From positions 31,678-66,359 of the forward strand of contig JAYOYH010000003.1 of NCBI GenBank assembly GCA_038153405.1: 34,682 bases of DNA, given 5' to 3'. This document shows positions 124 to 32,390 of this stretch, one piece after another. The translations under genes were made by a program, and so were the position numbers. This DNA is from Gemmatimonadota bacterium (GTDB lineage Bacteria > Latescibacterota > UBA2968 > UBA8231). The notes beneath the pieces are model-generated. The model was given only the letters and a program-made list of their open reading frames with translations. It was not told the origin of the DNA and ran no database searches. Every line of letters begins with the position of its first letter. Within the stretch, counting starts at the first letter, position 1.

Positions 124-1548
124 TTACTTACCAATGAGCTGGTGTTTGCGCAACAGGTGGCGAAAGCGATCGTAGCTCAAACTGAGAGCGAGCGCGGCCG
201 ATTTTTGGTTGCCTTCCGCCCCCTCTAGCGCGCGCGTGAGCAACCCGCGCTCTTGGGCGGCCATGTGCGCGTCAAAATCGCCCGCCGTTTTTTCTCCAGC
301 GCGCCCACCCTCCAGCAGTTCGGGCGGAAGGTCACCGGCCACGACTCGTTCGCCCTTAGCCACGCAGAGTGCTCTTTCTACGGCAAACTTGAGCTCGCGC
401 ACGTTACCCGGCCAAGCGTAGGCTTCCATGGCCCCTAGCGCTTCCTCCGAAAATTCTCGGCGAACCATGGAGGGCACTTCGTCGAAGAGTTGGCCGGCAA
501 CGTATGCGCAGAGCGGGCGGATATCCTCTATGCGCTCGCGCAGCGGCGGCAACTCGATGACGGCAAAGCGCAATCGGTCGTACAAATCGGCGCGAAAGCG
601 CCCCTCTGCTATTTCCGTTTCCAGGTTGGCATTGGTTGCGGCAACCACCCGCACATCGACCCGCACCGTCCGATTGCCTCCCGTCCGTTCAAATTCCTGA
701 TACTCAATGACGCGCAGTACGTTTTTTTGAAAGTCGACCGAAGTATTGCCTATTTCGTCCAGAAAGAGCGTGCCGCCATCGGCCGACTCAAAACGCCCCC
801 TACGAGTGTCGGATGCTCCGGTAAAGGCGCCTTTTTCATGACCAAAAAGCTCCGATTCCAGCAGCGAGTCGGAAAGCGCGGCGCAGTTCATCTTGACAAA
901 GGGGCGATCGCGGCGGTCGCTGCCGCTGTGCAGGGCCGCCGCGATTAACTCCTTGCCCGTGCCTCGCTCGCCGCGTATGAGTACCGGCCGGGGAATTGAA
1001 GCGATCTGCTCCACATGTTCAAGAACCGCCTGTATCTTAGCACTCGCGCTCACTACGCGGTAGCGCTGTCCCAACTCACTGCGATAGAAGTTCAGGTCCC
1101 GGCCAAGCGCTTCGTTTTCCGCTCTCAGGCGCGCGTTTTCTCGCAGGACCACTAGCATTCGCTCGATTTTCTCTACCCCTATCTCCAGCTTGTCTTCGAC
1201 GTAGAGGTCTTTCTCTATAAAGTCGGCCGCCCCGTTTTGCACCGCCTCAACCGCCGCCTCGACGCTTCCCTTGCCGGTGAGGATAATAACCGGCAGTTGG
1301 GGTCGGACGTTCTTGATCCGGCGCAGTACTTCAATACCATCGGGCTGGCCGGCGCCAAAGTCGAGGTCGAGGACGACGAGTTCGACTTGGTCATCGCCGT
1401 CGGACAAATAGGTCAGCACCGCATCGCCGCTGGCAAAGGTCCGCACTGCTTTGCCTAACGTGCGCAGCGTTTGCCCAAGCATATCCCGCACTTCCACCTG
1501 ATCATCGGCAATGAGCACCAACCCCTTTTCAACCTCCATTGCAGTCAT
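124..1548 (-). CDS. sigma-54-dependent response regulator (REC + AAA+ + Fis-type HTH), PspF-like AAA+/HTH
   Basis: REC domain (ADD, LVVLDLD, LTG, IEK); Walker A GERGTGKE; ESELFGHEKGAFTGA; Walker B LFLDE; WPGNVREL; C-terminal NQKSAALALSLSYDRFRHLLRKHQL resembles the PspF HTH. Confidence 0.95.
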   Translation of the reverse strand: MTAMEVEKGLVLIADDQVEVRDMLGQTLRTLGKAVRTFASGDAVLTYLSDGDDQVELVVLDLDFGAGQPDGIEVLRRIKNVRPQLPVIILTGKGSVEAAVEAVQNGAADFIEKDLYVEDKLEIGVEKIERMLVVLRENARLRAENEALGRDLNFYRSELGQRYRVVSASAKIQAVLEHVEQIASIPRPVLIRGERGTGKELIAAALHSGSDRRDRPFVKMNCAALSDSLLESELFGHEKGAFTGASDTRRGRFESADGGTLFLDEIGNTSVDFQKNVLRVIEYQEFERTGGNRTVRVDVRVVAATNANLETEIAEGRFRADLYDRLRFAVIELPPLRERIEDIRPLCAYVAGQLFDEVPSMVRREFSEEALGAMEAYAWPGNVRELKFAVERALCVAKGERVVAGDLPPELLEGGRAGEKTAGDFDAHMAAQERGLLTRALEGAEGNQKSAALALSLSYDRFRHLLRKHQLIGK

Positions 1549-1560
1549 CTTTCATCCAAG

Positions 1561-2916
1561 TCAGCCCCCGCTAACGGGTAGGGGTATATCCATGCGAAAC
1601 ACCGTGCCCTCTCCCCGTCGACTCACCACGCGCAGCGCGCCCCCATGCGCTTGAACGGTGCGCCGAGCGATGTTCAGGCCGTAGCCATTGCCGCCGTCTC
1701 GCATCGAAAAACCAGGTTCGAAAATCAGATCCCAATAGGCTTCTTCGATGCCGGGTCCGTCGTCTTCGACTTCGAAAAAAACCCGTTCGGCCTCGGCGTC
1801 AAACCCCACGCTCACTTCGACGATGCCCCCGCCCAACGGTTCTAACATTTCGAGGGCATTTAGGCACAGATTAAGCAGGGCTTCGCGCAGCATGCGCTCG
1901 TCGCCTTCTAAGGGGGGCAAGTCTTCCTGTGCGCGCACGCGCAGCGCGGAGTTCCACGGCTGGCTTTGCAGCATTTCGACGACGCGTTCGACCATCTTTG
2001 CCGCATCGATATCGGCCGGGCGCAGCCCCTCCTTTTTCATCGCACTGAGAAAGGCTACCCACTCTTCGAAGAGGCGCTGATATTCGGCTTCGACTTGCTT
2101 TAGTTCACCTTGCGCGCCGCCGCTAGTGCGCACCGTGCGGCGCAGTCGGCTTCCCACCAGCCCCATGCGATTCTTTAGCTGGTGCCCCTTGGTGTAGAAC
2201 CCCTCATAGACTTGCTCTTTGCCCGCTTCGACCATTTCCCTTGCCAAGTTGGCTAAAACCTGGGGGGCTTCTTCGGCAAACTCATCGATAATATGGGCGT
2301 ATTCGAGTGCCCATTCGCCTTCATGGCCAAGGCGCATGAGTAGCCGAGCCAGATTGGTATAGGGCTCGCGCAGCGACGGCTCCAACTGAATGGCTATCTT
2401 GTATTGGCCGACCGCGCCAATAAACTGCCCAGCTCGCTGGAGAACCTGTCCTAAGCTGTTGTGTCCTGCCGCCGACAACGGATCGAGCGCAAGGCCGCGG
2501 CGCAGCAGGCGAGCCGCTCGATCACCCTCGTCATCCGCTTCCGCACAGAGCGTACCCAGGGCAAAGAATAGTCGTTCCGCCCCCTCGATTTCTCCCCCCC
2601 CCTCTAAATAATCCAACGCGGCTTGCAGGTGTTTTTTGGCGCGCTGCCGCTGAGTGGAACGGGGCTGGCGCGACAGCAATAGACCGAGCTGTAAGTGGCT
2701 CTGCACATGACCCAACTGCGCGGCCCTCTCCCATGTTTCGATGGCGTCCTGCACCGACCCCAGACGCGCGTGGCACACCCCCTTTAAATGGATCAGTTCC
2801 ACCGCGCCCTCTTCGCGCCCGTCCATACCCTCCATCTCCCTAAGCGCCGCCTGCCAGTGGCCCAGCGCGAGCAGAGAGTGGATGAGCTCAGCGCTCTGCG
2901 ATCCGCTAACGGGCAC
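1561..2916 (-). CDS. soluble TPR-repeat sensor histidine kinase
   Basis: N-terminal TPR-like helices (e.g. AAGHNSLGQVLQRAGQFIGAVGQYKIAIQLEP); H-box GHQLKN, N-box LLNLCLNA, G1 EDDGPGI, F-box IFEPGFS, G2 GNGYGL; no TM segment seen. Start placed at GTG 2916, overlapping the upstream stop; the ORF track extends to 3012. Confidence 0.88.
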   Translation of the reverse strand: MPVSGSQSAELIHSLLALGHWQAALREMEGMDGREEGAVELIHLKGVCHARLGSVQDAIETWERAAQLGHVQSHLQLGLLLSRQPRSTQRQRAKKHLQAALDYLEGGGEIEGAERLFFALGTLCAEADDEGDRAARLLRRGLALDPLSAAGHNSLGQVLQRAGQFIGAVGQYKIAIQLEPSLREPYTNLARLLMRLGHEGEWALEYAHIIDEFAEEAPQVLANLAREMVEAGKEQVYEGFYTKGHQLKNRMGLVGSRLRRTVRTSGGAQGELKQVEAEYQRLFEEWVAFLSAMKKEGLRPADIDAAKMVERVVEMLQSQPWNSALRVRAQEDLPPLEGDERMLREALLNLCLNALEMLEPLGGGIVEVSVGFDAEAERVFFEVEDDGPGIEEAYWDLIFEPGFSMRDGGNGYGLNIARRTVQAHGGALRVVSRRGEGTVFRMDIPLPVSGG

Positions 2917-3385
2917 TTTCAACCCCGCGGCTCCAGTGTTTCTCGTGGGCAAAGAGCGCTTCGGGAAAACGGTAGACGACGACACCGGAGTCGCTAACTT
3001 CAACTTCTGCATACCCCCGATTGACCATACCCGTTACGATGTCGTCGACTTCTTCTACGGCCAGCCCCGTCTCGACGGCGATTTCCGTCATCATAAGACG
3101 CCCACCGCGCTGCTGTGCCAGTCGAATGATTTTATTTTGCTGGCGTCGATGCCGTATTAAATGAGCCGCCGCATCGAGTCGCTTGCCGAACATCCACAGC
3201 AGACTACCGACAATCGCCAAGGTCACGCCAACGGCAAACGGGGCGATGGACCGGTGTCCTCCCACATCGGTTGCGTCGAGAATCTCCCACAACCCATAGA
3301 GCATAAACCCAACGCCTAGGGGAACGGTTAGGCCACCCCACCCTTTGCAACACAGTGCACAGAACCGCTTAAAACTGCCCTCCAT
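2906..3385 (-). CDS. hypothetical membrane protein: two TM helices plus C-terminal winged-helix-like domain
   Basis: Hydrophobic segments WGGLTVPLGVGFMLYGLW and IAPFAVGVTLAIVGSLLWMFG, then IIRLAQQRGGRLMMTEIAVETGLAVEEVDDIVTGMVNRGYAEVEVSDSGVVVYRF; lies between pspA and the kinase; start chosen at ATG 3385 (uncertain). Confidence 0.75.
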   Translation of the reverse strand: MEGSFKRFCALCCKGWGGLTVPLGVGFMLYGLWEILDATDVGGHRSIAPFAVGVTLAIVGSLLWMFGKRLDAAAHLIRHRRQQNKIIRLAQQRGGRLMMTEIAVETGLAVEEVDDIVTGMVNRGYAEVEVSDSGVVVYRFPEALFAHEKHWSRGVESAR

Positions 3386-3476
3386 ATGACTACCCGCTCT
3401 CATTTTCAGCCCGTTTACTGCATCTTCTAGCTGGCGCATTATATGCCGTTTTATTCTCCGTAAGTTCGCGACCGAC

Positions 3477-4154
3477 CTATGGAACGTCCCGCTTTGCCTT
3501 GGCCTTGAGCGCATTCAGTTCGTCTTCGACAGCGCGTTCGACGTCAAGCTGGTGTACCTGGCGCTCAATGCCATCCATTTCACCGGCCAGCTCGGAGTGC
3601 GCAGCAGCTTCTGCCTCATTGGAGACGACCCGTTCCTCAAATCGTTCAAAGCTGGAAAACGCATCGCTACCCAATCCCGACAAACTTTGCGCTATGCGCT
3701 TGCGCGCTTCTGCGGCCTGGTGGCGCGCAATGAGCGTACCCTGTCGCGTGCGCCCCTCTTCGAGCTTTGTTTTTAGCGCCCGCAGTTGTTCGCGCAGCTG
3801 GTCGGCCGTCTGCTTGCTTTCTAAAATGGCTGGCTCCAGGTCGGCCACTGCACGAGCTTGGATCGCTTTTTGTTCTAACGCGCGCCGGGCCAGATCGTCG
3901 TCACCTGCTTCCACCGCTCGTTCCGCTTTGCCCTGCCATTGGCCAACCTGTTTCCGCCGGTCTTCACATTGGCGTTCCAAGCGTTTTTGGTTGGCGACGG
4001 CCGTGCCGACCGAAGCCGTCGCCTTGTTGACCGCTTCTTCCATATCCCGCACCATTTGCCGAATCATTTTTTCCGGATCTTCGGCCCGATCCAACAGCTC
4101 GCTCATATTGGACTTGAGAATATCGCGAATCCGTGCGAAAGTGCCCTTGGCCAT
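3477..4154 (-). CDS. pspA: PspA/IM30 family phage shock protein A
   Basis: FARIRDILKSNMSELLDRAEDPEKMIRQMVRDME N-terminus, coiled coil, GDDDLARRAL and FSSFERFEERV motifs; AGGAG RBS before ATG 4154. Confidence 0.95.
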   Translation of the reverse strand: MAKGTFARIRDILKSNMSELLDRAEDPEKMIRQMVRDMEEAVNKATASVGTAVANQKRLERQCEDRRKQVGQWQGKAERAVEAGDDDLARRALEQKAIQARAVADLEPAILESKQTADQLREQLRALKTKLEEGRTRQGTLIARHQAAEARKRIAQSLSGLGSDAFSSFERFEERVVSNEAEAAAHSELAGEMDGIERQVHQLDVERAVEDELNALKAKAKRDVP

Positions 4155-4208
4155 CGTCTTTAACTCCTGTGAGTGCATGGGTGATAACCGCGCTTGTGGA
4201 CGGACTAC

Positions 4209-4223
4209 GCAAGAGTCGTACCA
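4209..4223 (-). promoter_or_regulatory. sigma-54 (-24/-12) promoter of the pspA operon
   Basis: - strand reads TGGTACGACTCTTGC, an exact GG-N10-GC with one mismatch to TGGCACG-N4-TTGC, 55 bp upstream of pspA. Confidence 0.85.
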
Positions 4224-4310
4224 GCATATAAAAAAGACCTGCGCAAAAGACAATCGCCTTCTCTACCAATACATTACCAACCAATCAACGCGATGTCACG
4301 CCATTCCCAT

Positions 4311-4349
4311 TTGGCGGAATTGACCAACTGTGGTAGCGAATTCCGCCAA
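4311..4349. promoter_or_regulatory. paired upstream activator sites (UAS) for the sigma-54 activator
   Basis: Perfect 11-bp inverted repeat TTGGCGGAATT(4311-4321)/AATTCCGCCAA(4339-4349), equivalent to two imperfect 17-bp palindromes 22 bp apart, about 90-125 bp upstream of the -24 element. Confidence 0.65.
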
Positions 4350-4420
4350 CGGGCCCTATGAGCCTTTTGCTTTTCCCCTATCTTGGCTATTTTTCCTACT
4401 CATCTGATCGGAGCGTATTC

Positions 4421-5878
4421 ATGACGCATGTGCTCTTGGGACTGGGACTGTATTTGCTGTGTATGCTGGGCATTGGACTCTATGCCAGCCGACGCGTGGC
4501 TAGTTCGCAGGACTTTATCGTCGCCGGCAAGCGCCTGTCTCTGCCGCTGTGCACCGCAACGCTGGCCGCCACCTGGTTTGGTGGCGGCATCTGCATAGGG
4601 GCATCGAGTGCGGCCTATAAGGGAGGCTTTCTCTCCGTAATCGCCGACCCGTTTGGCGCCGCTCTCTGCCTTTTTTTAGCGGGTCTTTTCTACGTTCGCC
4701 TGTTGCGCCGCATGGGGCTTATGACCATCGCCTCGCTATTTAGCAGGCGATTTGACGAACGAGCTGGCCTATTGGCCAGCCTCTGCACCATACCCGCCTA
4801 TATCGGCTGGGTCGCTTCGCTGATGGTCGCCTTTGGGCGCATCTTGCAAAGCCTAACGGGCCTCGAACCCAATACCGGCATCGCAGTGGCCGCCGCCATC
4901 GTCCTAATATACACCTTCGCCGGGGGCATGTGGGCCGTTACCCTTACCGACCTCGTTCAGATCGTCATTTTGGTGCTCGGTCTGCTGATCCTAGCGCCTA
5001 TCCTACTCAGCGATATGGGCGGCTGGCAGGTGCTGGCAGCACAAATTCCGGCAGAGCGCTTTTACCTCTACCCGCGCGAGGCTGGCGCAACCGAATGGTT
5101 TGCCTATGCCCGCGACTGGTTGGTCATCGGTCTGGGTAACTTAGCCGGCCAAGACCTCATTCAGCGCAGCCTGTCCAGCCGCGATGAAAAGATCGCCTAT
5201 CGCAGCGCCTATCTGGCCGGTCTACTCTATATCAGCGTGGGCCTCATACCCGTATTTCTCGGACTGGCCGGTCGGGTGATCTTACCCGACCTGGCCGACC
5301 CCGATCTGATCATGATGGAACTGGCCCTGCGCTACCTGCCCGAAGCGGCGCTGGTGCTGTTTGTCGGCGCTCTGGTTTCCGCTCTTCTCTCCAGCGCCGA
5401 TAGCGCCCTGCTCGCTCCGGCCAGCGTGCTAGGATGGGATATGCTGCGCTTTTTCAAACCCAATATCGACGAGCGCACGGCGCTGAGAGCCTCGCGCGCC
5501 TCCGTCGTAGTTTTTGGCCTTTTTGCGATGTGGCTGGCCATGGATAAGACCTCTGTCTACGATCTGATGGTCGACTCTTGGTCCGTTCTCTTAGCCACGC
5601 TCTTCGTGCCCCTTACGGCTGGGCTGTGGTGGCCCAAGGGGAACGGCCCCGGCTGTCTGTCGTCTATTGTTGTTGGCTTTGTGTCTTGGCAGATCTTTCT
5701 CGCCCTAACGCCCGATCTGCCCGCCGACCTTATGGCCGTGCCCTTTGCAGCCCTGGCCTTTGTCGCCGTGAGCTTGCTCACCCAGCGCAGTGCGCCGCCC
5801 CGCCCGCTGAGCGATGAAGAGGGCCGCTCGCTGGATTATAGCAATCGATTGGGTATGCTTTTCTTTGACCGAAAATAG
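4421..5878 (+). CDS. sodium:solute symporter (SSS/SLC5 family), reminiscent of choline-transporter-like members
   Basis: About 13 TM helices; DFIVAGKRL, ATWFGGG, YTFAGGMWAVTLTDLVQ and ALLSSADS motifs; GGAG RBS before ATG 4421. Confidence 0.93.
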   Translation: MTHVLLGLGLYLLCMLGIGLYASRRVASSQDFIVAGKRLSLPLCTATLAATWFGGGICIGASSAAYKGGFLSVIADPFGAALCLFLAGLFYVRLLRRMGLMTIASLFSRRFDERAGLLASLCTIPAYIGWVASLMVAFGRILQSLTGLEPNTGIAVAAAIVLIYTFAGGMWAVTLTDLVQIVILVLGLLILAPILLSDMGGWQVLAAQIPAERFYLYPREAGATEWFAYARDWLVIGLGNLAGQDLIQRSLSSRDEKIAYRSAYLAGLLYISVGLIPVFLGLAGRVILPDLADPDLIMMELALRYLPEAALVLFVGALVSALLSSADSALLAPASVLGWDMLRFFKPNIDERTALRASRASVVVFGLFAMWLAMDKTSVYDLMVDSWSVLLATLFVPLTAGLWWPKGNGPGCLSSIVVGFVSWQIFLALTPDLPADLMAVPFAALAFVAVSLLTQRSAPPRPLSDEEGRSLDYSNRLGMLFFDRK

Positions 5879-5930
5879 TCAAACGCTGTACAGCACAATA
5901 TCTCGACCAAAACCACCAGGAGCTCGTGTC

Positions 5931-6827
5931 TTGAAGCAATTTTTTTCTTTTCCGCGAACCGCCGTCCTTCTCGCAATAGCGCTCGCCAGTTACCACTGCA
6001 GTCGCGAACCAGCCCCTTCCATCACGGCCGATGATGGCTCTGAAATGCTGCTGATTCCGGCCGGTTCCTTCACCATGGGAGGCCGCGAAGAAGATCTCGA
6101 AGGCTTTGAAAATCGCGCCTATAAAAACTACATCGCAGAACGGCCGCTGCACACCGTATCCATCAGCGCATTTTACATGGACAAGTACGAGATCACCCAC
6201 GCCCAATACGCTCGCTTTCTCGAAGCCATCAAGGATGCTGACGATCGCAGCATGGACCACCCCGACCAACCCGATAATACAGACCATCGACAGCACTATG
6301 TAGACGACACCCTCAACGACCCGCAGCAGCCCGCCGTAGGCATTAACTGGTATGACGCTTATGCCTACTGTAACTGGGCCGGCAAGCGCTTGCCAACGGA
6401 GGCCGAATGGGAGTACGCTGCACGCGGAGCCGGCGACGTATACCGCAAATATCCCTGGGGCAACGAAGAACCCGATGCCGGCGGCATCTGGCGCGCCAAC
6501 TTTCGCTCGCTGCAGGGCAGCGATGTGGATGGATATCACCGCTCCGCCCCCGTCGGCAGCTTTCCCGACGGAGTCAGCCCCTTTGGCATTATGGATATGG
6601 CCGGCAATGCCGAGGAATTCGTGAGCGATTGGCTCAGTTGGAATTACTACGGCCAGACGGAGGGCGCCCAGGATCCACAGGGCCCATTAGGCGGAAGGAA
6701 TAAGGTGATTAAAGGAGGGTCCTACGGCTCGGATAAATACCACATACGCATCGCCGTCCGACTCTATGGATCACCCGAGACGAAGACCGAACTCATCGGC
6801 ATTCGCTGCGCACAAGACCTGCCCTGA
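5931..6827 (+). CDS. formylglycine-generating-enzyme (SUMF1/FGE-sulfatase) domain protein, possibly an exported lipoprotein
   Basis: IPAGSFTMG, FYMDKYEIT, AYCNWAGKRLPTEAEWEYAARG, YPWG, DMAGN, KGGS, GIRC; hydrophobic N-terminus ending in Cys; TTG start after AGGAG. Confidence 0.9.
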   Translation: MKQFFSFPRTAVLLAIALASYHCSREPAPSITADDGSEMLLIPAGSFTMGGREEDLEGFENRAYKNYIAERPLHTVSISAFYMDKYEITHAQYARFLEAIKDADDRSMDHPDQPDNTDHRQHYVDDTLNDPQQPAVGINWYDAYAYCNWAGKRLPTEAEWEYAARGAGDVYRKYPWGNEEPDAGGIWRANFRSLQGSDVDGYHRSAPVGSFPDGVSPFGIMDMAGNAEEFVSDWLSWNYYGQTEGAQDPQGPLGGRNKVIKGGSYGSDKYHIRIAVRLYGSPETKTELIGIRCAQDLP

Positions 6828-6833
6828 GCGCGC

Positions 6834-6861
6834 TTGACAGCGTATTTGACCGCAGTACGTT
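6834..6861 (+). promoter_or_regulatory. sigma-70-type promoter of the ALDH gene
   Basis: TTGACA-16 bp-TACGTT in the intergenic gap, about 45 bp before ATG 6905. Confidence 0.55.
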
Positions 6862-6904
6862 GTAAAAAACTAGGCAACGCAACACCTAACCTAAGGAACC
6901 AGCC

Positions 6905-8314
6905 ATGAGAATGTATATTGGAGGACAGTGGGTCGATCGAGACGATCGCATAGACGTCATCAACCCATTTGATGGCTCGACCATCGACACCGTGCCCAAC
7001 GGCACGCCTGCCGATGTCGACGCGGCCATTGCCTCTGCCGAACGCGGCGCCAAGGTGATGGCCGCACTTTCGGCTTACGAGCGCTACAAAATACTCCACC
7101 GCGCCAGCGAGATCATGACCGAGCGCGTGGCTGACCTGGGGCGCACCATCACCCTAGAAGAAGGCAAGGTCATTGCCGAGGGCATGGGCGAAGCGGCGCG
7201 TGCGCAGGAGACCATTGAGCTTTCTTCGGAAGAGGCCAAGCGCCTTACCGGCGAAACGCTCGACCTGAGCGGCGCCTCAAACGGAGCGGGTAAATTTGGC
7301 TTTACCCTGCGCGTCCCCTGCGGGATAGTCGCCGCCATTACCCCCTTTAACTTCCCGCTCAACTTGGTCTGTCACAAAGTCGGCCCCGCACTGGCGGCGG
7401 GCAATGCCATCGTAGTAAAACCCGCCACCGACACACCCCTTTCGGCTCTCAAATTGGTGGAGATCTTGCTCGAGGCAGGCCTGCCTGCCGAGGCTATTCA
7501 GTGCGTCACCGGGCCCGGTGGTTCGATTGGCGATGCCATTAGCGCCGATCCGCGCGTGCGCAAGATCAGCTTTACTGGTAGCCGCGATATCGGCGAGCAC
7601 ATCTGCAAAACAGCCGGTCTGAAAAAGGTCACAATGGAATTGGGGTCTAACTCACCGCTCATCGTCATGGCCGATGCCGACCTCGAAAAAGTTGCTGCCG
7701 CCACCGCTTCCAGCGGTTTTGCCAATGCCGGACAGGTGTGTATTTCCGCCCAGCGCGTGCTGGTAAACGACGCCATTTACGGCGATTTCCTCGACGTGCT
7801 TAAACCGGCCATCGAGAAGCTAAAAACGGGCAACCCGCTCGACGAAAGCACCAAGATGGGGCCGATGATTCGCGAGCGCGATGCCGAGCGCGTCCACGCC
7901 TGGATCCAGGACGCAGTGGCTGGCGGCGCGCGCCTTATCACCGGCGGCACCCGCGAAGGCACTCTGCACGCCCCCACCGTCGTGGCCGACGTCGATCCGG
8001 GAATGCGCATTTCCTGCGATGAGATCTTCGGTCCGGCCATAGCCGTCAGCCGCTTTGACGATATCGATAGCGCCATTGCCGTGGCCAACGATACCAATTA
8101 CGGCCTGAGCGCGGCGATTTTTACCGAGAATATCAACTGGGCCCTCCAATATGCCCAGCAGGTCAATTCGGGCAATATTCATATCAACTGGGGCACGCAG
8201 TGGCGCGCCGACCTAATGCCCTACGGCGGTTTTAAGGAAAGCGGTATGGGCAAGGAAGGCCCGCGCTATGCCGTCGAAGAAATGACCGAAACCAAGATGG
8301 TCGTCATCCACTAA
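6905..8314 (+). CDS. NAD(P)-dependent aldehyde dehydrogenase
   Basis: ITPFNFP, KPA, SFTGS, catalytic MELG, AGQVC, EIFGP, YGL, PYGGFKESGMGKEG. Confidence 0.97.
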   Translation: MRMYIGGQWVDRDDRIDVINPFDGSTIDTVPNGTPADVDAAIASAERGAKVMAALSAYERYKILHRASEIMTERVADLGRTITLEEGKVIAEGMGEAARAQETIELSSEEAKRLTGETLDLSGASNGAGKFGFTLRVPCGIVAAITPFNFPLNLVCHKVGPALAAGNAIVVKPATDTPLSALKLVEILLEAGLPAEAIQCVTGPGGSIGDAISADPRVRKISFTGSRDIGEHICKTAGLKKVTMELGSNSPLIVMADADLEKVAAATASSGFANAGQVCISAQRVLVNDAIYGDFLDVLKPAIEKLKTGNPLDESTKMGPMIRERDAERVHAWIQDAVAGGARLITGGTREGTLHAPTVVADVDPGMRISCDEIFGPAIAVSRFDDIDSAIAVANDTNYGLSAAIFTENINWALQYAQQVNSGNIHINWGTQWRADLMPYGGFKESGMGKEGPRYAVEEMTETKMVVIH

Positions 8315-21407: not shown

Positions 21408-22064
21408 TCATTCCGCGCGGCCCGCCATTTCTCCGGCAAAAAATGGGCACTCGGCAATGAGATTACACTCGTCGCACTGCGGCTTGCGCGCCTTGCAGAT
21501 ATAGCGCCCGTGCAGGACAATCCGCTGGCCAAAAGCCGTCCACGCATCGGTCGGCAGCAGCTGGCCAAGCGCCATTTCCACCTTGACCGGATCCTTCTCG
21601 CCCGTCAACCCCAATCTGCGGCTCACGCGCCCAACGTGCGTATCGACGACGATGCCAGGGACTCCAAATACATTCCCAAGAAGCACGTTGGCGCTCTTGC
21701 GGCCAATGCCTGGCAGACGCGTCAAGGCCTCCATATCGCCGGGCACTTGGCCATCGTGCTCGTCGAGTAAGATCTGCATTGCCGCGCGAATATTCTTGGC
21801 TTTTTGCCGGTAAAATCCCGTTGGCCGAATATCTTCTTCCAACACCTCGGGGGCCACATCCACATAGTCCTGCGCCCGGCGGTACTTCGCAAAGAGATCG
21901 CGGGTAACTTCGTTGACTTTCACATCGGTGCACTGCGCCGCCAGCACGGTAGCCACCAGCAATTCGAGCGCATTTGTATAGTCCAATTCCACCCGCGGTT
22001 GCGGAAAGCGTTCTGCCAGTGCGCTGGCCACGCGCAGCGCTTTTGCCCGAGTTTGATCTGTCAT
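21408..22064 (-). CDS. nth: endonuclease III
   Basis: LAAQCTD, HhH LPGIGRKSANV, VDTHV, 4Fe-4S motif CKARKPQCDECNLIAEC. Confidence 0.97.
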   Translation of the reverse strand: MTDQTRAKALRVASALAERFPQPRVELDYTNALELLVATVLAAQCTDVKVNEVTRDLFAKYRRAQDYVDVAPEVLEEDIRPTGFYRQKAKNIRAAMQILLDEHDGQVPGDMEALTRLPGIGRKSANVLLGNVFGVPGIVVDTHVGRVSRRLGLTGEKDPVKVEMALGQLLPTDAWTAFGQRIVLHGRYICKARKPQCDECNLIAECPFFAGEMAGRAE

Positions 22065-22080
22065 GCCTGCTCTTATCTCC

Positions 22081-23247
22081 CTATGCTTCCATGGATGGCG
22101 CTTGCCCCCAGCGATGGCGCTTGCCCTTCCAAGAAAAGAGCCCTACAACGCCCAGCGCGCCAACGACGACCACATGCAGCGGCTGAATAAGGGCCCATAA
22201 GATCCAATAACGGGTTAACTCCACGCGCCGGCTCAAGCGGCAGGCTCGGCGAAATACGAGCCATTCGCCCCCCCACTTACTGGCGATGACCGCAAGCAAA
22301 ACCGGGAAGCGCATCCCCCCCAACGCAGTCACTAAAGGGGCGATTACGACGCACCAACTCAGGCTGTAGGTCACCGCCATATAGGCAAAAAAAAGCGGAT
22401 CCATGCGCGCCATGAGCGGCGCATTGGAAGCCCAGCGCGAACGCTGGCTCAGCAGGTGCCTCCACGACGCGGCGGGCGGGTGCTGGGCAAAGGCGATCTC
22501 CTCGCTGCAAAAAACAATTTTCCAGCGCGTTTTCGTCCGCACCATCTGCATGAGCAATACGTCGTCGCCCGAGGCCCGGTGCAGCACGCGCTGATAGCCG
22601 TTAACCTCGTCGTAGGCGCTGCGTCGGAATACCAGGTTCTGCCCCGACGCGGCCATGGGATGCCCGTGCCCGCTGCTTCCCCAGATGCAGCCCATCAGGT
22701 TGAGAAAATCAAGCGCTTCATAGCTGCCGCGCGCCCCGAGTCGATCGCCTTCTGCGCCAATCTGCGAAAAGCCAATCACCATGCCGACATCGTCTTCGCA
22801 CTGGGCCACCATGCCACGCAGCCACCCGCTGCCCACCAGACAGTCGGCATCCGTGGTGGCGATGATATCGCCTTTGGCCGCGGCAATACCCAGAGTTAGA
22901 GCGGCTTTCTTCGAACCGCCCTCCGTGCTTCTGAGCAAGCGCAAGCGCCCGTCGCCCTTGGCCAATGCTTCGACCAAGTCCGGCGTGCCGTCGCGCGAAC
23001 CGTCGTCGACAACCAGGATTTCATAGTGGGGGTATTCCTGCGTGGCCAATCGCTGCAGGCAGGCGCCAATGCGCTCGGCCTCGTCGCGTGCGGCAACGAC
23101 CACCGAGACAAAGGGCTGCTCAACCTGGCCGCCGACCAACCGCCGCATCCCCGATACAAACCAGCCAATACCGACCCAATAGAGCGCGGCGGCCACGAGC
23201 ACAAACCACTCGAGCGGGTGCTGCGGAACGAGTGCGTGCCAACTCAC
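22081..23247 (-). CDS. membrane-bound glycosyltransferase family 2
   Basis: N-terminal TM, AARDE, DDGSRD, TDADC, SGDD, QRSRW, C-terminal TMs. Confidence 0.93.
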   Translation of the reverse strand: MSWHALVPQHPLEWFVLVAAALYWVGIGWFVSGMRRLVGGQVEQPFVSVVVAARDEAERIGACLQRLATQEYPHYEILVVDDGSRDGTPDLVEALAKGDGRLRLLRSTEGGSKKAALTLGIAAAKGDIIATTDADCLVGSGWLRGMVAQCEDDVGMVIGFSQIGAEGDRLGARGSYEALDFLNLMGCIWGSSGHGHPMAASGQNLVFRRSAYDEVNGYQRVLHRASGDDVLLMQMVRTKTRWKIVFCSEEIAFAQHPPAASWRHLLSQRSRWASNAPLMARMDPLFFAYMAVTYSLSWCVVIAPLVTALGGMRFPVLLAVIASKWGGEWLVFRRACRLSRRVELTRYWILWALIQPLHVVVVGALGVVGLFSWKGKRHRWGQAPSMEA

Positions 23248-23249
23248 AA

Positions 23250-24317
23250 TTAGTCGCGCAACTCTTTTACCAGCGAGAACATGCCGCGATAGCCTTCAGA
23301 GCAGTTGCGGCACATATCCGTTGCATTGCGATCGCGCAGCAGCTGTGCGCGAAAATCCATGTAGGGGCGGCTGCGCCAAATAGCGCTAAAGGGGCGACCA
23401 TTAAAGGCCTGTCCCATAGAGAAGTCTACGTCCTTATCAAAACAGCAGGGAGCCACGGCACCGTCCCAGTTAATCATGGAGCTATACCAGAGCACTTTGC
23501 ATCCTCTTGCCGGCTGGCCCTTGACGATGAGCGCATCGCCCTCCCCCGCATAGCGGCTGTATTCGTCGTTTTCCGGCAGGAATTCTTCGGCATCTTGGGA
23601 CGAGTAAACTTGGGCGGTCTTTACGAGAAATTTATCCACCCCCAATTCGCGCGCCTTTTGCTCTGCCGCGCGCATATCCCCCTCGTTGTGGCGCATGACG
23701 ATAAACTGCAGGTTGATCAACGGAAGATCGACACCGCGCCGCTGCTTGGCCTCCACTAACCGATGCACCCCGGCAAATACGCGTTCGATATCACCGCCGA
23801 CGCGGTAGGTCGCATAGGTTTCCTGCTCGACGCCGTCGAGCGAGACGATGATCTCGTCGAGGCCTGAGTCGACAATGGCTTCCGCTTCCGCCTCGCTGCG
23901 GATATAGTGTCCATTGGTGCTAGTAAAGGTGAATAAACCCTTGTCGTGCGCGTAGTGCACCATATCGTTGAAACAGCTATTCAGATAGGGTTCGCCTTGG
24001 TTCCACATCATCATCATAACGGCCCGATCGGCCATTTGGTCGACCAGCCCCTTAAAGTCGTCTATCGACATATTGCCGCGCGGACGTTTCATCTGCCCAT
24101 TGCCAGACGGACAGAGCGGACACTTGAGGTTGCAGAAGTTGGTCGGTTCGACCATGATCATGAGCGGCTGTCCCCATACGATGGGCCGCCGCAGCAGCCA
24201 AGAGGCCGCCATTGAGGAGAACACGAGCACCGCATTGGCCAGACGCCTCCATGAAAAAATACGCCTATAGCGCCGTATATAGCGCGGAAGCCCCTTTGAT
24301 GCAACCAAATATGCCAT
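23250..24317 (-). CDS. radical SAM protein with SPASM/twitch domain
   Basis: CNLKCPLC, GEP, STNG, SLDG; C-terminal C...DGAVAPCC...CRNC. Confidence 0.93.
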   Translation of the reverse strand: MAYLVASKGLPRYIRRYRRIFSWRRLANAVLVFSSMAASWLLRRPIVWGQPLMIMVEPTNFCNLKCPLCPSGNGQMKRPRGNMSIDDFKGLVDQMADRAVMMMMWNQGEPYLNSCFNDMVHYAHDKGLFTFTSTNGHYIRSEAEAEAIVDSGLDEIIVSLDGVEQETYATYRVGGDIERVFAGVHRLVEAKQRRGVDLPLINLQFIVMRHNEGDMRAAEQKARELGVDKFLVKTAQVYSSQDAEEFLPENDEYSRYAGEGDALIVKGQPARGCKVLWYSSMINWDGAVAPCCFDKDVDFSMGQAFNGRPFSAIWRSRPYMDFRAQLLRDRNATDMCRNCSEGYRGMFSLVKELRD

Positions 24318-24366
24318 GCAGTCCTTCTACTCGTGGTGGGAAAGAATCAGAGAGCGCAGCCGGGCG

Positions 24367-25476
24367 TCACTTTTTCCAGCGGAATAGACCCAAGCGACCG
24401 GCCGGCGCCAGCAGTGCGACATAGGGAATATACAAAACTTCCAGAAGGGGAACATACCTCAGCCAACCCTTTCCCTTCCCGCCCATCATGCCGAGTAGGA
24501 GCAGGGCGTCTACTAGCCAGCGCATGCCCCAGATGCCCCAGAGGATTACCCCCCCGTACAGGCCGCTCAGCGCCGCGAGTAAGCCCACTCCCAAGGCGAG
24601 ATGAAAGGTGTAGACCAGACCGGCCAGTACTAGAGCCGGGCCCCTATAGTGCCCCCCCTTGGCCGCGTGGCGCATTTTCTGTTGGATAATGGCTCCCCAA
24701 GTGGAGGGAGCTGGCAGCGAGTCGACTACCGCATCGCGATCGAAGACGAGCTGCCAGTCGGTGTGCTCGGCGACCTGTCTCATAAAATACACATCGTCCC
24801 CGCCCAGTAGATGGCCAATTTCGGCAAAGCCGCCCACCTGATCGTATACCGCTCGGCGGTAGGCTAAATTGCGCCCCGTGCACGAGAGGGGTTTTCCCTG
24901 GGCGAAGCTACCGGCAGCCAAAGCGCCAATGGCGGTATTTTCCAGCGACAGCACGCGCTGTATCAGCGATGGCCCAGCCTGCGTATGGGCGTGACCGGCT
25001 ACCAGACCTACCCGTGGACCAAAGTGCGATGCCAGCGAACGGGCCCAGTGGCGCGGCGGTCGACAGTCGGCATCGGTAAAGAGCAGCAACTCGCCCTTCG
25101 CCGCGGCGATGCCCTGGGCTAGCGCGCTTTTTTTTGGACAGCGAAAGGGGGGGGGATCCTGGGCGTGGATCACCCGCAGGGCAGGCCAGCGCTGACCCCA
25201 TGCTTTGGCGATATCGCCCGTGCCATCGCGCGAGCGATCGTCGACCACTATGACCTCCCATTCCCCCTCGTAGTCCTGCTCGCTCAGCGCCTGCAAACAC
25301 CCCTCCAGCACCTGCTCTTCATTGCGCGCGGCCACGACGAGACTCAGCGCAGCCCGGCTTTTGCCAACAACGGGGTCAGCCGGTTTATGCACCCCGCGCA
25401 AGAGCCAGACAATGGCGCCGATATAGCTGCACCCGCCGACGAGTAGGAGCGCTTCGAGTGCGTGCGAAAATAGCAT
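24367..25476 (-). CDS. membrane-bound glycosyltransferase family 2
   Basis: AARNE, DDRSRD, TDADC, GGDD, QKMRH, C-terminal TMs; paralogous to 22081..23247. Confidence 0.92.
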   Translation of the reverse strand: MLFSHALEALLLVGGCSYIGAIVWLLRGVHKPADPVVGKSRAALSLVVAARNEEQVLEGCLQALSEQDYEGEWEVIVVDDRSRDGTGDIAKAWGQRWPALRVIHAQDPPPFRCPKKSALAQGIAAAKGELLLFTDADCRPPRHWARSLASHFGPRVGLVAGHAHTQAGPSLIQRVLSLENTAIGALAAGSFAQGKPLSCTGRNLAYRRAVYDQVGGFAEIGHLLGGDDVYFMRQVAEHTDWQLVFDRDAVVDSLPAPSTWGAIIQQKMRHAAKGGHYRGPALVLAGLVYTFHLALGVGLLAALSGLYGGVILWGIWGMRWLVDALLLLGMMGGKGKGWLRYVPLLEVLYIPYVALLAPAGRLGLFRWKK

Positions 25477-27239
25477 TAGAAATGCCGGTAACGCAGATCG
25501 AAATACAAGTGGTCTTGCACCCCATCACCCCATTCAGTACGACGCGCCAGCGGCACGGCGCTACCCCAGTTGGGCGGTAGCGGCACGCTCTCACCCCATT
25601 CTTTACCATAGCCCAATTCGACAGCTACCTGTCCGCCTATGCGCCAGCTTCCGCTCAATTGCACCAGCGTTCGTCGCTGCACGACCCCATCTAAAAAGGC
25701 CTTGTTGGTGCGCTCATCGCCCGGGCGCCATCCGTAGTGCAAATCACCGCCGACATTGCGGATGCTGCCGTCTGCCAGGACCTCGTTATCGCCGTGACGA
25801 CTGCGCTGGGCCAATAGGCGCAGCATCCGATTGGGGCCAAAGCGCTTTTCGATAGCCAGGGCGAGTCGATCGCTATTGGGCGCCAGTGCGTGACCCAGTG
25901 GAGCGTCAAAATGGCGAAAGGTATTGATGGGAAATTTATGCGTGTAAATCCACGGTTCGATGCGCACGTACTCCACAAATAGATCGCCGTCGCGCAGCAG
26001 CGGTGGGTCCACCCAAAACATTCCGGCCTGCAGCGAAAACTTATTGGCAAAGTCGTCGGAAAAAATAGCTGCCTTTTTAAGATCGTCGATTACATAGGAC
26101 AGATAGTAGCGCCGATTGCCCCCGGGGTGCACGTCGATATCAAAGCCCATCATCACATTGTCCTTATCGCCCAGATGGCTCTGCGCAGCCCAGTAGAACA
26201 TCAGCGGGTTTAAATACGTCGGCTCTACTCCGCGATCGCCGTAGACCACGACCTCGTGAAATCCCACATCTACCCACGAAGCCAGCGCCACTTCCAGCCG
26301 GTGCGCGGCCAAGTACTTCGGCCGCTCCAGCACGCGCGATTGCCCGTTGACGATATAGGAGTCAACCGGATCGGCCATGCCGCGGCACAGCGGCGAATCG
26401 GCCCGATCGGGGCAGGGCCGCAGCGCACCGGCTATGCTCACCAAGCGAAAAGCCCCCAGCGTTGAGCGCAGGCGCAGCATGGTGTACGAAGGCGCGTTGT
26501 GGCTCAGGCCGAGGTTGTCAAAGCGCCCCGGCCCCCACATCGCCTCGTCTTTGCCAAACTCCACATTGACGTGGGGCAAGCCAACAGTCACATAGGCTAT
26601 CGCTTCGTGGTAATCGGTCAACGTCCCCTTGAGCTGGGGGACTTCCAGCCGGCGCTGAAAGACTTGATCGCGCCAGGTATAGGTGCGCGTCCCCTGCTCG
26701 CGCGTCTGCGCGAAACTCATGCGAAAGCCGAGGTATTGGCCGACGTGGCCGCGCACAATGCCCCCTGCTGTATTGCGAAAAATCCGCTCTGACCCCCTCC
26801 GGCCGCGACCGCTAAACCGATCCGTCTGCTGACGGAAGAGCAAATCGGCCAGCAGTTCCCCCTCGTCCGCTCTGTAGGCAAAGGGAGGAAGGCCATAGCG
26901 CGCGCGCGCTGTGGCCCCCTGTGGCTGTGCCTTTCCCAGTTCAAAAGCCCATTCGTCCTCAAAGCGCTCTAGGAGGACGCGCTCCGTCTGGCTTATCGCC
27001 CAACCACCGTCCACTGCCGTGCGAATGGACCGCAGCATATCGGCCATGTGCTGGCGCGTGTAGGGGCGAATGCCGCCCACCTGATAGCCCAATACCCCGC
27101 GCGCTTCAAAGCGCTCGACAAAGGCGTAAAGGGGATGTTCGAGGGGCACGTTTACCGTCCGATCCGCCTGCGCTTGCGCGGCATACAGGAGGCATAGCAA
27201 GGCCCCCACACACCACCTTGACAGTTCAGACCGAGACAT
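25476..27239 (-). CDS. capsule assembly Wzi-like outer-membrane beta-barrel protein
   Basis: Signal peptide ending AQA-D; WGPG..NLGLSHNAP, AAHRLE and YLNP motifs; C-terminal Phe (LYFDLRYRHF); start moved to ATG 27239 to avoid overlapping eno. Confidence 0.75.
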   Translation of the reverse strand: MSRSELSRWCVGALLCLLYAAQAQADRTVNVPLEHPLYAFVERFEARGVLGYQVGGIRPYTRQHMADMLRSIRTAVDGGWAISQTERVLLERFEDEWAFELGKAQPQGATARARYGLPPFAYRADEGELLADLLFRQQTDRFSGRGRRGSERIFRNTAGGIVRGHVGQYLGFRMSFAQTREQGTRTYTWRDQVFQRRLEVPQLKGTLTDYHEAIAYVTVGLPHVNVEFGKDEAMWGPGRFDNLGLSHNAPSYTMLRLRSTLGAFRLVSIAGALRPCPDRADSPLCRGMADPVDSYIVNGQSRVLERPKYLAAHRLEVALASWVDVGFHEVVVYGDRGVEPTYLNPLMFYWAAQSHLGDKDNVMMGFDIDVHPGGNRRYYLSYVIDDLKKAAIFSDDFANKFSLQAGMFWVDPPLLRDGDLFVEYVRIEPWIYTHKFPINTFRHFDAPLGHALAPNSDRLALAIEKRFGPNRMLRLLAQRSRHGDNEVLADGSIRNVGGDLHYGWRPGDERTNKAFLDGVVQRRTLVQLSGSWRIGGQVAVELGYGKEWGESVPLPPNWGSAVPLARRTEWGDGVQDHLYFDLRYRHF

Positions 27240-27246
27240 ATACGTT
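27218..27246 (+). promoter_or_regulatory. sigma-70-type promoter of eno, overlapping the start of the divergent wzi-like gene
   Basis: TTGACA-17 bp-TACGTT about 50 bp upstream of the eno ATG. Confidence 0.55.
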
Positions 27247-27271
27247 TTTCGGTTGCATAAAAATCCAATAA

Positions 27272-29814
<2,543 letters not shown>

Positions 29815-30527: not shown

Positions 30528-32390
30528 GTGCACGCTCGAAAAAGTCAGACCTCATTGGCAAAGAAAAGATCATCATCAGGCGGCCTGCTCAGCTCGCTCA
30601 AGACAATACTCGGCTCGCCCTCCCCCAAGCGCGCCAAACGTTCGGCAAAATCCAAAAAAAAATCCAAAAGCCGTCAACCGGGCGACCAACAGACCGCGTT
30701 CTACCCGCCCCGCATCGACCTCGATCCACTGCTCCACCCTGACCAAAAGCGCAGCGGGACCATCCCCCCCCGCCTGAATATCGGGACCGTACTCTACAGC
30801 CAGCGCCACGGCATAAAGTGCATCCTGCTCGAGCCATTCGACGTGGTTGATATCCTGACGCTCAAAGAGTTATGCCAACGCAAGTTCGGAGAGGAACAGG
30901 TCGTCTACCTGCCGATGGGCACCGCGGTGCTTAAAGAAGAAATCATGCACCAAGGCCGCGAGTACGTGGCGCGCTTAAACAAGGGCACCGTTCTGCTGAG
31001 CTCCGGTGGTCATCCCACCGGCTTCTTGCTCGAGGCTATATCGCTACCTCTGCGCAAAGAGCTCACGCGCAACAGCCAGTTCATGCCCCTGACGGAGGCT
31101 TCTGCCAAGCGCAACCTGCAAAAGCTCGTCAATATTCCCAGCAGCTTTTCTCTGCTCAAAGAGGACCTCTTACACGACGGCAATACGCCCGCGCAAACGG
31201 TCGAAAAAGGTTCGTTGGTCATCAGTCGCGGCGGTGGCCTAACCGGACTCATGCTGGAAGACGTGCAGTTACCCCTGCGCATCAGCGTGGTCGAACTGAC
31301 GGGGCTTTTCGCCCTCAAGACCACCTATAAGAGCTATCCCATTGAGATTTTGCTAATGGAAGCCAGCAATAGCAGCGAAGGAAAAGTGCCCATCGAGCGC
31401 GGCACGTTTCTCTTTAGCCCCTATGGCAAGGTGTATTTCGTCTGGCGCGAAGGGGTTGAAGTGACGGAGCAAACGCTGAAAAACTGGTCGGTGTCTGCAA
31501 CCGTCATTGACCGCAGCGTCCTTGAGATCTCCGTCACCAACAACAACACCATCGGCGGTCCGGGCGAAGTCATCACGCAGGACGATATGAACTATCTGCG
31601 CGACGTCTTCAAAACAGCCGGTTCCACCAATATATACCGCCAAACGCTCCTGCTCGAAAACAATGCCTTTTTCAAGTTCATTCAGGACATACCCTATGCG
31701 CACACCGGCAAGTTCCGCTCCTTTATAAACAAGGGACTCATGGTGCAGCTCAATACGTTCCGCAAGGGCACCTTTAGCGTCGAGTTAGGCGGTAGTCGCA
31801 TCGAGATTACCGACAAGGATCTCGAGCAGATTCGCAAGCATCTACAGATCGAAGGACGCCTACTCATTAAGATAGGCACTCTCCTGCGCGTGAGCGACGA
31901 GCGCTCGGGCGACTGGGTATACCGGGCCATTAACAATATTTTTTATCCCTACGATACGCTGACTCGGCCTCAGTTGGAAGAATACATACCCGATTCCATC
32001 ACTTTTGACCACCGTGCCGACAAGGAATCGACCCTGATCGGCCCGCAGGAGCATCCCCACGACGACGATATTGGTGCTGAAGGAGATCCTCTTGCCGACC
32101 TCATTGCGCTGGTCAATAACGAGCTCAGCAAGGAACGCACCGTATTCGTGCTCGACAGCACCCTATTTTTCTGGGGCAAACGCCTCTATAGGGTCAACGA
32201 AGAGTTGGTCTTTCGCCCCCAGCATCACAATAAGATCGACCTGCGCGATATGGAGGGCTTTGAGGCCGATTGGAAAATCCACCCCGTCGTCGAAGAGAAC
32301 CACACCGATGACGACGAACTCCCACCGCAGGATTTTGAAGACAACGACGACTTCGAAGACCTGCCTTTTGACACGGGCGTGCACAAGTAG
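30528..32390 (+). CDS. hypothetical protein, 620 aa, with degenerate internal repeats, basic N-terminus and acidic C-terminus
   Basis: Long ORF with GC-rich third codon positions and its own promoter; no family recognised; start codon uncertain. Confidence 0.85.
   Translation: MHARKSQTSLAKKRSSSGGLLSSLKTILGSPSPKRAKRSAKSKKKSKSRQPGDQQTAFYPPRIDLDPLLHPDQKRSGTIPPRLNIGTVLYSQRHGIKCILLEPFDVVDILTLKELCQRKFGEEQVVYLPMGTAVLKEEIMHQGREYVARLNKGTVLLSSGGHPTGFLLEAISLPLRKELTRNSQFMPLTEASAKRNLQKLVNIPSSFSLLKEDLLHDGNTPAQTVEKGSLVISRGGGLTGLMLEDVQLPLRISVVELTGLFALKTTYKSYPIEILLMEASNSSEGKVPIERGTFLFSPYGKVYFVWREGVEVTEQTLKNWSVSATVIDRSVLEISVTNNNTIGGPGEVITQDDMNYLRDVFKTAGSTNIYRQTLLLENNAFFKFIQDIPYAHTGKFRSFINKGLMVQLNTFRKGTFSVELGGSRIEITDKDLEQIRKHLQIEGRLLIKIGTLLRVSDERSGDWVYRAINNIFYPYDTLTRPQLEEYIPDSITFDHRADKESTLIGPQEHPHDDDIGAEGDPLADLIALVNNELSKERTVFVLDSTLFFWGKRLYRVNEELVFRPQHHNKIDLRDMEGFEADWKIHPVVEENHTDDDELPPQDFEDNDDFEDLPFDTGVHK

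Follow-up and report, generated by a model that had tools for sequence, protein, structure and literature searches.

The 34,682-nucleotide stretch analysed here (the window) is positions 31,678 to 66,359 of contig JAYOYH010000003.1 (GenBank assembly GCA_038153405.1), filed as Gemmatimonadota bacterium and placed by GTDB in the Latescibacterota. Its host is an uncultured aquatic bacterium, and near-identical operon DNA occurs in assemblies from estuaries, seawater and ballast water. The genome, which is 93% complete at 4.86 Mb, carries rpoN and three PspA-family genes. At one end of the window, four co-oriented genes on the minus strand encode, in order from the promoter, a PspA homolog, a protein with transmembrane and winged-helix segments (TM/wH), a tetratricopeptide-repeat (TPR) protein resembling histidine kinases and a sigma-54 activator with a receiver domain. 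The system is a real, conserved variant of the known Psp stress system, with a predicted interface between PspA and the kinase. Its features are as follows.

4334..4348, minus strand: upstream activating site I (TGGCG-N5-CGCYA type), 15 bp, predicted activator-binding site
4312..4326, minus strand: upstream activating site II, 15 bp, 22 bp from site I
4208..4223, minus strand: sigma-54 -24/-12 promoter element (GG-N10-GC), motif in 42/42 loci scored
3477..4154, minus strand: pspA (PspA/IM30, ESCRT-III-like), 225 aa, PF04012 E value 6e-46
2906..3439, minus strand: TM/wH gene, about 177 aa, stop at 2906, probable start at 3439 inferred from relatives
1561..2922, minus strand: soluble TPR-DHp-CA histidine-kinase-like protein, open frame up to 3012, probable start near 2916-2922
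124..1548, minus strand: receiver-AAA+-Fis-HTH sigma-54 activator of the wider PspF clade (REC-Sigma54_activat-HTH)

Conservation of the operon and its promoter

The arrangement described by the initial annotation, four co-oriented genes behind a sigma-54 promoter with paired upstream activating sites, is present in the window, and its complete gene set recurs in 56/65 orthologous loci from three families of probable Latescibacterota. These loci comprise a first set of 45 (the 47 best minus two distant ones), in which the full gene order occurs in 40, truncation at a contig end affects four and the remaining one carries a fusion of pspA with the kinase end, and a second set of 20 more distant regions, of which 16 contain the complete gene set, three are truncated and one is without the TM/wH gene; 7 of the 9 incomplete loci end at contig or fetched-sequence ends. 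A survey of gene order, which had been proposed as a check, thus found both the pspA-TM/wH-TPR kinase-activator order and the promoter conserved across loci. In the fused locus (L041:5419-5949), the 5' half of pspA continues in frame into the C-terminal part of the kinase, through either a deletion or a misassembly, and the locus without a TM/wH gene (L122:3606-6443) carries before its kinase what appear by eye to be ECF sigma factor and band-7/flotillin-like genes. Within the phylum, an ortholog of the kinase was found in 98/168 genomes, in three families of one class. One locus (L001) is filed as Planctomycetota; its proteins, with 77% identity for the activator, are the closest to those of the window and place within the Latescibacterota group, and we do not count L001 as a second phylum.

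In every locus scored, the window included, pspA is preceded by the -24/-12 motif, which was also found in those loci of families f3 and f4 for which upstream DNA was available. In the window, a perfect 11-bp inverted repeat (4311-4321/4339-4349) encloses both 15-bp sites. A TGGCG-N5/6-CGCCA-like pair spaced by 21-22 bp was found with at most 3 mismatches in 20 positions in 36/41 loci and in 0/1500 random genome windows, a count that is partly circular because the consensus was drawn from the same loci. Families f3 and f4 carry the pair in a similar place in a T/A variant (scores 4-7). Two checks are less affected by this circularity. The E. coli pspF-pspA spacer contains a matching pair at 5 mismatches, a score that 40/1500 random windows also reach. 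When the 257 sigma-54-like sites of the source genome were ranked by upstream-site score, the top three all preceded pspA starts: that of the main operon, that of a paralog on contig C33 and that of a truncated copy on contig C36. Scans for sigma-70 promoters and terminators remained at chance level.

The C33 locus (27825-29007, plus strand), which has the best paired-site score of the genome at a sigma-54 site followed by a diverged pspA paralog with the predicted kinase-binding face retained, is likely a second member of the regulon; it also encodes a 135-aa membrane protein, a doubled version of a 51-59-aa gene that relatives have within their main operon. The C36 copy (46740-47036, minus strand) is a duplicated remnant near a contig end, in which a 77%-identical promoter with paired sites and -24/-12 element and the first ~35 pspA codons give way to unrelated sequence. 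The third pspA (C49:3000-7932) belongs to a different cluster and has no paired sites; its neighbors, judged by eye, are presumably a CesT-type chaperone, an oxidoreductase, a spermidine synthase-like protein and a DUF4178 protein.

Neither Pfam PspB nor Pfam PspC was found in the source genome at its 93% completeness, PspB was matched in 0/168 phylum genomes, and PspC occurs in 29/168, the kinase co-occurring in only one of those 29. No activator scored above the TIGR02974 PspF cut-off in the source genome or in any of the class genomes (0/132). The initial annotation had noted the lack of pspB and pspC in the window, and this extends to the whole source genome, but it does not carry over to the relatives, most of which have PspB-like small membrane genes at this spot: 35 first-set loci and 19/20 second-set loci contain one to five small genes for TM and coiled-coil proteins between TM/wH and kinase. 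Their similarity to PspB and PspC is weak. Pfam PspB was not listed for the 14 small proteins examined, TIGR02976 matched 4/24 at an E value of 0.05 or weaker, TIGR02978 matched 3/24 with a best E value of 0.001, and hhalign gave PspB a probability of 13%, while the Atlas cluster 'Phage shock protein B family' was assigned at 0.89. Since a profile of these genes found no match in the source genome, the window represents a reduced form of the operon. In four loci (L118, L124, L125 and L136) the N-termini fused to the small coiled-coil module vary and include a repeat-rich protein and a protein that is TM2-domain-like by eye, with up to five copies per operon.

The TM/wH protein has two predicted membrane helices, the second clear and the first weaker, and a C-terminal winged helix, and may act as a membrane anchor or adaptor. 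Comparison of this winged helix with ESCRT-II yielded a generic match only, the Z scores of 10.2-10.3 being tied with those of many unrelated winged helices (9-11); a Foldseek search gave no match under an E value of 0.001.

A receiver-bearing activator in the wider PspF clade

The activator is 48% identical to E. coli PspF over 310 aa. Its best NCBIfam model is TIGR02974 PspF, at 356 bits against a cut-off of 443.55, and its score with the NtrC model lies within 8 bits of this; identity over the AAA+ domain is likewise non-discriminating (121/236 to PspF, 120/236 to ZraR). These values would favor a rival reading, in which an ordinary NtrC-type pair just happens to follow pspA and has other genes as its targets. 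Phylogeny separates the two cases: in the AAA+/HTH tree, which had been suggested as a check against NtrC, AtoC and ZraR, the activator and E. coli PspF fall in one group of 42 rows with support of 100/100 against 17 outgroup rows, and this group excludes NtrC, AtoC, ZraR, GlrR, NorR and FhlA (59-row tree, built after 12 of 54 ingroup rows that were near-duplicates or partial had been dropped; a 208-row FastTree agrees). The HTH shares 20/44 residues with PspF and 9-12/44 with six other E. coli activators. Together with a receiver tree (see below), which likewise sets the activator apart from NtrC, ZraR and AtoC, the AAA+/HTH tree leads us to reject a generic NtrC-type activator, and, given also the PspF-type sites upstream of pspA genes and the conserved synteny, control of unrelated genes by such a pair is scarcely credible. 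The PspF-like character of AAA+ domain and HTH is thereby borne out. Canonical, W56-bearing PspF proteins form a separate clade (100/99) with the activator outside it; we infer that the latter is PspF-like in DNA target and sigma-54 activation without being a canonical PspF.

The N-terminal receiver is intact, as had been proposed: it matches PF00072 (E value 1e-19), with D61 as acceptor, and the Asp-Asp pair, D61, T91 and K113 are retained in 171-172/172 orthologs; the GAFTGA motif of the AAA+ domain is also intact. By contrast, the docking patch through which E. coli PspF is held by PspA is altered. This patch consists of Y51, L52 and W56, with Y51 as the primary site, and variants in it escape PspA (PMC3791423; here and below, papers are cited by PMC identifier for their accessible parts). 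In the window activator the three positions read S-G-R. Among the orthologs, the L52 position is Gly in 163/172, and the six commonest residues at the W56 position, which account for 170/172, do not include Trp. Because the patch lacks L52 and W56, loss of direct inhibition by PspA is likely but not proven.

The alternative is dual control, in which direct inhibition of the activator by PspA persists and phosphorylation does no more than supply a further input. Y51 is retained in 159/172 orthologs, although it is Ser in the window. The PspA equivalents of E37 and W71, invariant in 57/57, are counted on the same side, on our assumption as to their role. A second PspA site on PspF has been described (PMC6003685), so that, with Y51 mostly kept, direct inhibition would still be feasible. 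Against this, L52 and W56 are lost throughout the family, and in the window Y51 as well; W56A relieves PspA inhibition in E. coli (PMC3791423; PMC6003685), and the activator stands outside the W56 clade. Dual control is on balance distinctly unlikely, and loss of direct inhibition is the reading followed below.

The initial annotation had spoken of a rewired PspF, that is, of a canonical PspF that acquired a receiver. The trees do not show this; they reveal a wider receiver-bearing family whose receivers form one group. Receiver-bearing members of the clade also occur in Planctomycetota, mostly away from pspA (32/301 genomes matched at an E value of 1e-80, some of the matches lying outside the clade), and in clusters with Kofleriaceae names. 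Set against 25 other activator receivers, those of the clade group together with support of 99/91, in a tree that omitted one partial and five divergent receivers. In approximately unbiased (AU) tests, a single clade of receiver-less rows was rejected (p 0.0003), as was a single clade of receiver-bearing rows (p 0.001); a position of canonical PspF as sister to all others was not rejected (p 0.35), and a clade uniting Latescibacterota and canonical PspF was borderline (p 0.048). The tested groups were named after the trees had been inspected, and some short receiver-less database proteins may be fragments. Since the receivers form one group and the receiver-less members do not form one clade, the receiver was lost at least once, and probably more often.

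Two receiver-less members without W56 lie divergently beside pspA among 20 planctomycete loci, and L048 is arranged likewise. L048 (4234-6951), L193 and L194 each encode a receiver-less PspF-clade activator without W56, divergent from one or two pspA genes. Five distant PspF-clade proteins (P0134, P0135, P0148, P0153 and P0166) have degenerate receivers without the usual acidic pocket.

The TPR kinase and its predicted contact with PspA

The kinase-like protein has no membrane helix (no 19-residue hydropathy window exceeds 1.12), and the first ~30 codons of its open reading frame (ORF), which overlap the TM/wH gene, are probably non-coding. Its predicted fold consists of TPR repeats and a long helix leading into a DHp domain and a classical CA domain, and fold searches return classical cores of the ZraS/HK853 type. 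Conservation of the His, N, G1, F and G2 boxes is complete or almost so, with N381 in 44/44 rows. The description as a soluble TPR kinase therefore stands as regards solubility, TPR domain, and HisKA-like boxes and fold, but kinase activity is uncertain: H277 (ORF numbering) lies in an atypical H-[R/Q]-x-K-N box with invariant Asn at H+4, and the residue after the His (H+1) is Arg in 32, Gln in 11 and a gap in 1 of the 44 rows, never acidic; it is likewise Arg or Gln in the 20 more distant loci. Autokinase activity of HisKA proteins reportedly needs an acidic H+1 (PMC8292422).

The protein may therefore act mainly as a phosphatase. In this alternative, it would be a PspA-switched phosphatase or pseudokinase, the receiver being phosphorylated by another kinase or by a small phosphodonor and reset by the PspA-bound TPR protein. 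A non-acidic H+1 combined with the invariant H+4 Asn is in keeping with such a role, and DrBphP, a HisKA phosphatase without an acidic H+1, provides a precedent (PMC8292422). Opposed to it are the conserved His, N, G1, F and G2 boxes and a Glu four residues before the N-box Asn, which is present in at least 90% of 35 rows; in 18/21 motif-matched kinases of the genome this position is Gln. In HWE/HisKA2 kinases a Glu supplies the base (PMC12148442), and by analogy the Glu before the N-box might replace the missing one here. HWE/HisKA2 kinases and DrBphP share with the present protein a non-acidic residue after the phospho-His and a soluble enzyme, whereas the Glu of HWE/HisKA2 replaces the first N-box Asn, which is kept here. 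Given the intact boxes, a protein working mainly as a phosphatase is rather unlikely, and a functional kinase is assumed in what follows.

PspA itself is a full-length PF04012 protein (157 bits, cut-off 33.9) that falls below the equivalog cut-offs of the E. coli type and is 35% identical to E. coli PspA; its residues 41-59 are almost invariant across the three families. When the kinase TPR domain (ORF residues 39-269) and PspA(1-150) were submitted to complex prediction, the pair reached an ipSAE of 0.72, compared with 0.01 for the best of three controls. Runs agreed in at least 94% of contacts, and partner pLDDT was at least 83. The 0.72 mark is reached by 116/157 solved and 2/215 mismatched pairs, counts that are only a rough guide for predictions from our own alignments. 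The predicted interface places PspA 41-59 and 105-123 against helices of the TPR domain (ORF residues 171-210 and 240-248). Conservation is higher at the interface than elsewhere (0.90 versus 0.78 for PspA, 0.78 versus 0.59 for TPR), although this is not independent of the model, which used the same alignments. The C33 paralog matches the family consensus at 15/26 PspA interface positions and 42/124 elsewhere, and E. coli PspA at 6/26 and 55/124, respectively. The interface pattern supports the predicted binding of PspA to the TPR domain but does not show it.

Other ligands have to be weighed here: the kinase might control the operon in response to something else than PspA (TM/wH protein, PspB-like coiled coils, unfolded proteins), or it might be activated by bound PspA. 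The TM/wH gene overlaps the kinase start and its C-terminal tail is conserved, and planctomycete kinases of the same type sit without pspA or a TM/wH gene (a TM/wH gene was found in 0/5). The PspA-TPR prediction, on the other hand, passed, with a lineage-specific surface; moreover, the coiled-coil genes are missing in the source genome and the TM/wH gene in L122, yet kinase and pspA remain in both. A different ligand, or activation by PspA, is improbable, and PspA remains the preferred ligand.

The proposed circuit and its relation to known systems

Built on the observed genes, motifs, conservation and phylogeny and on a predicted PspA-TPR contact, the reading that we regard as probable, with some reserve, is an autoregulated sigma-54 Psp operon in which PspA binds the TPR domain of the kinase, the kinase sets the phosphorylation of the receiver and the activator drives the pspA promoter. 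Without stress, free PspA would keep the kinase inactive or acting as a phosphatase. Stress on the membrane would recruit PspA there, together with the TM/wH protein (and PspB-like proteins in relatives), and PspA would release the kinase; D61 would then be phosphorylated, and the activator would bind the paired sites and open the sigma-54 promoter. The operon, kinase and activator included, would be induced, and newly made PspA would close the loop again. We infer the sign of regulation, by analogy with PspA-PspF feedback, and likewise every biochemical step. The PspA-PspF switch, which the initial annotation held to be replaced or supplemented by phosphorylation, would in this case have been relocated rather than simply replaced: as PspA is predicted to bind the kinase, the feedback switch has likely moved there from the activator.

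Several points weigh against this circuit. Besides the non-acidic H+1 and the requirement reported for HisKA proteins, the widely retained Y51, the second PspA site on PspF and the shared alignments behind interface model and conservation, the kinase was matched in only 1/7 genomes of the same genus, the other six giving no match. Planctomycete TPR domains do not retain the interface residues. The same kinase type adjoins the activator in 8/20 planctomycete loci, of which only one lies near pspA, so that the kinase-activator pair is not always a Psp regulator. A single RNA run gave no evidence of expression, yielding three short contigs of ~140-180 bases and shorter partial matches. In a separate motif scan at planctomycete pspA genes (present in 6/10 genomes), no sigma-54 site with good paired sites was found, the scan being insensitive outside the lineage, since it missed promoters at 4/5 receiver-less pspF||pspA loci.

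The closest known relative is the E. coli PspF/pspABCDE system (also Yersinia, and the Desulfobacterota-type pspF||pspABC), which shares the sigma-54 promoter, two TGGYG-N5-CRCYA-like sites 20-22 bp apart, an activator with AAA+ and HTH domains of the same clade, and PspA as effector and, here by prediction, as regulator. It differs in that the present activator has an intact receiver, lacks L52 and W56 and is co-transcribed rather than divergent; the operon adds a soluble TPR kinase and a TM/wH gene after pspA, lacks Pfam PspB and PspC, and has the kinase as the predicted partner of PspA. B. subtilis LiaFSR-liaIH and the actinobacterial PspA-PspAA-HK-REC+wHTH operons (PMC11237479) likewise combine a pspA-family gene with a two-component system thought to control it; those, however, use membrane-bound kinases and REC-wHTH regulators, in contrast to the membrane-free TPR kinase and sigma-54 AAA+ activator found here. 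The tandem small TM and coiled-coil genes after pspA in relatives recall the multi-PspB operon of Erythrobacter litoralis (PMC11237479, Table S3), in which, by contrast, PspC is present and a receiver-less PspF is encoded divergently; the small genes of the relatives match PspB only weakly and are absent from the window.

As far as its accessible part goes, PMC11237479 has pspA together with kinases of the membrane type and regulators of the REC-wHTH type, and its PspF entries contain no receiver; PMC9239133 describes PspF matches outside enterobacteria as hard to assign; and the accessible parts of PMC4641369, PMC2587700 and PMC12316311 contain nothing on this architecture. No published description of it was found in the accessible literature, which excludes most subscription papers; the OpARA data sets (PMC9239133) and the web app of PMC11237479 may list such loci.

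If the circuit is correct, it constitutes a third mode of PspA control, in which a membrane-free kinase reads the pool of free PspA, the other two being the PspA-PspF partner switch and control by membrane kinases (LiaS, for example), and it offers a concrete candidate interface of a TPR domain with a PspA/ESCRT-III hairpin. It is relevant, too, to the origin of the sensor-less PspF. A further-reaching proposal, that a soluble TPR kinase with a swapped catalytic base has a bacterial ESCRT-III protein as its direct ligand and that receiver-bearing regulators represent the ancestral state of PspF, is put forward tentatively and, with both parts taken together, seems doubtful. Were it true, the textbook PspF would be what remained of a response regulator after loss of the receiver, with PspA binding taken on by PspF itself, and other lineages would have lost the receiver independently.

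Upstream of the operon, the paired sites sit directly before the ORF of a sodium:solute symporter, which together with an FGE-sulfatase-domain protein and an aldehyde dehydrogenase is encoded divergently (window 4358-8314); these neighbors are kept in most family f1 loci. Further along, the minus strand of window 21408-27419 encodes an HhH-GPD glycosylase, two GT2 glycosyltransferases, a radical SAM/SPASM protein and a Wzi-like protein.

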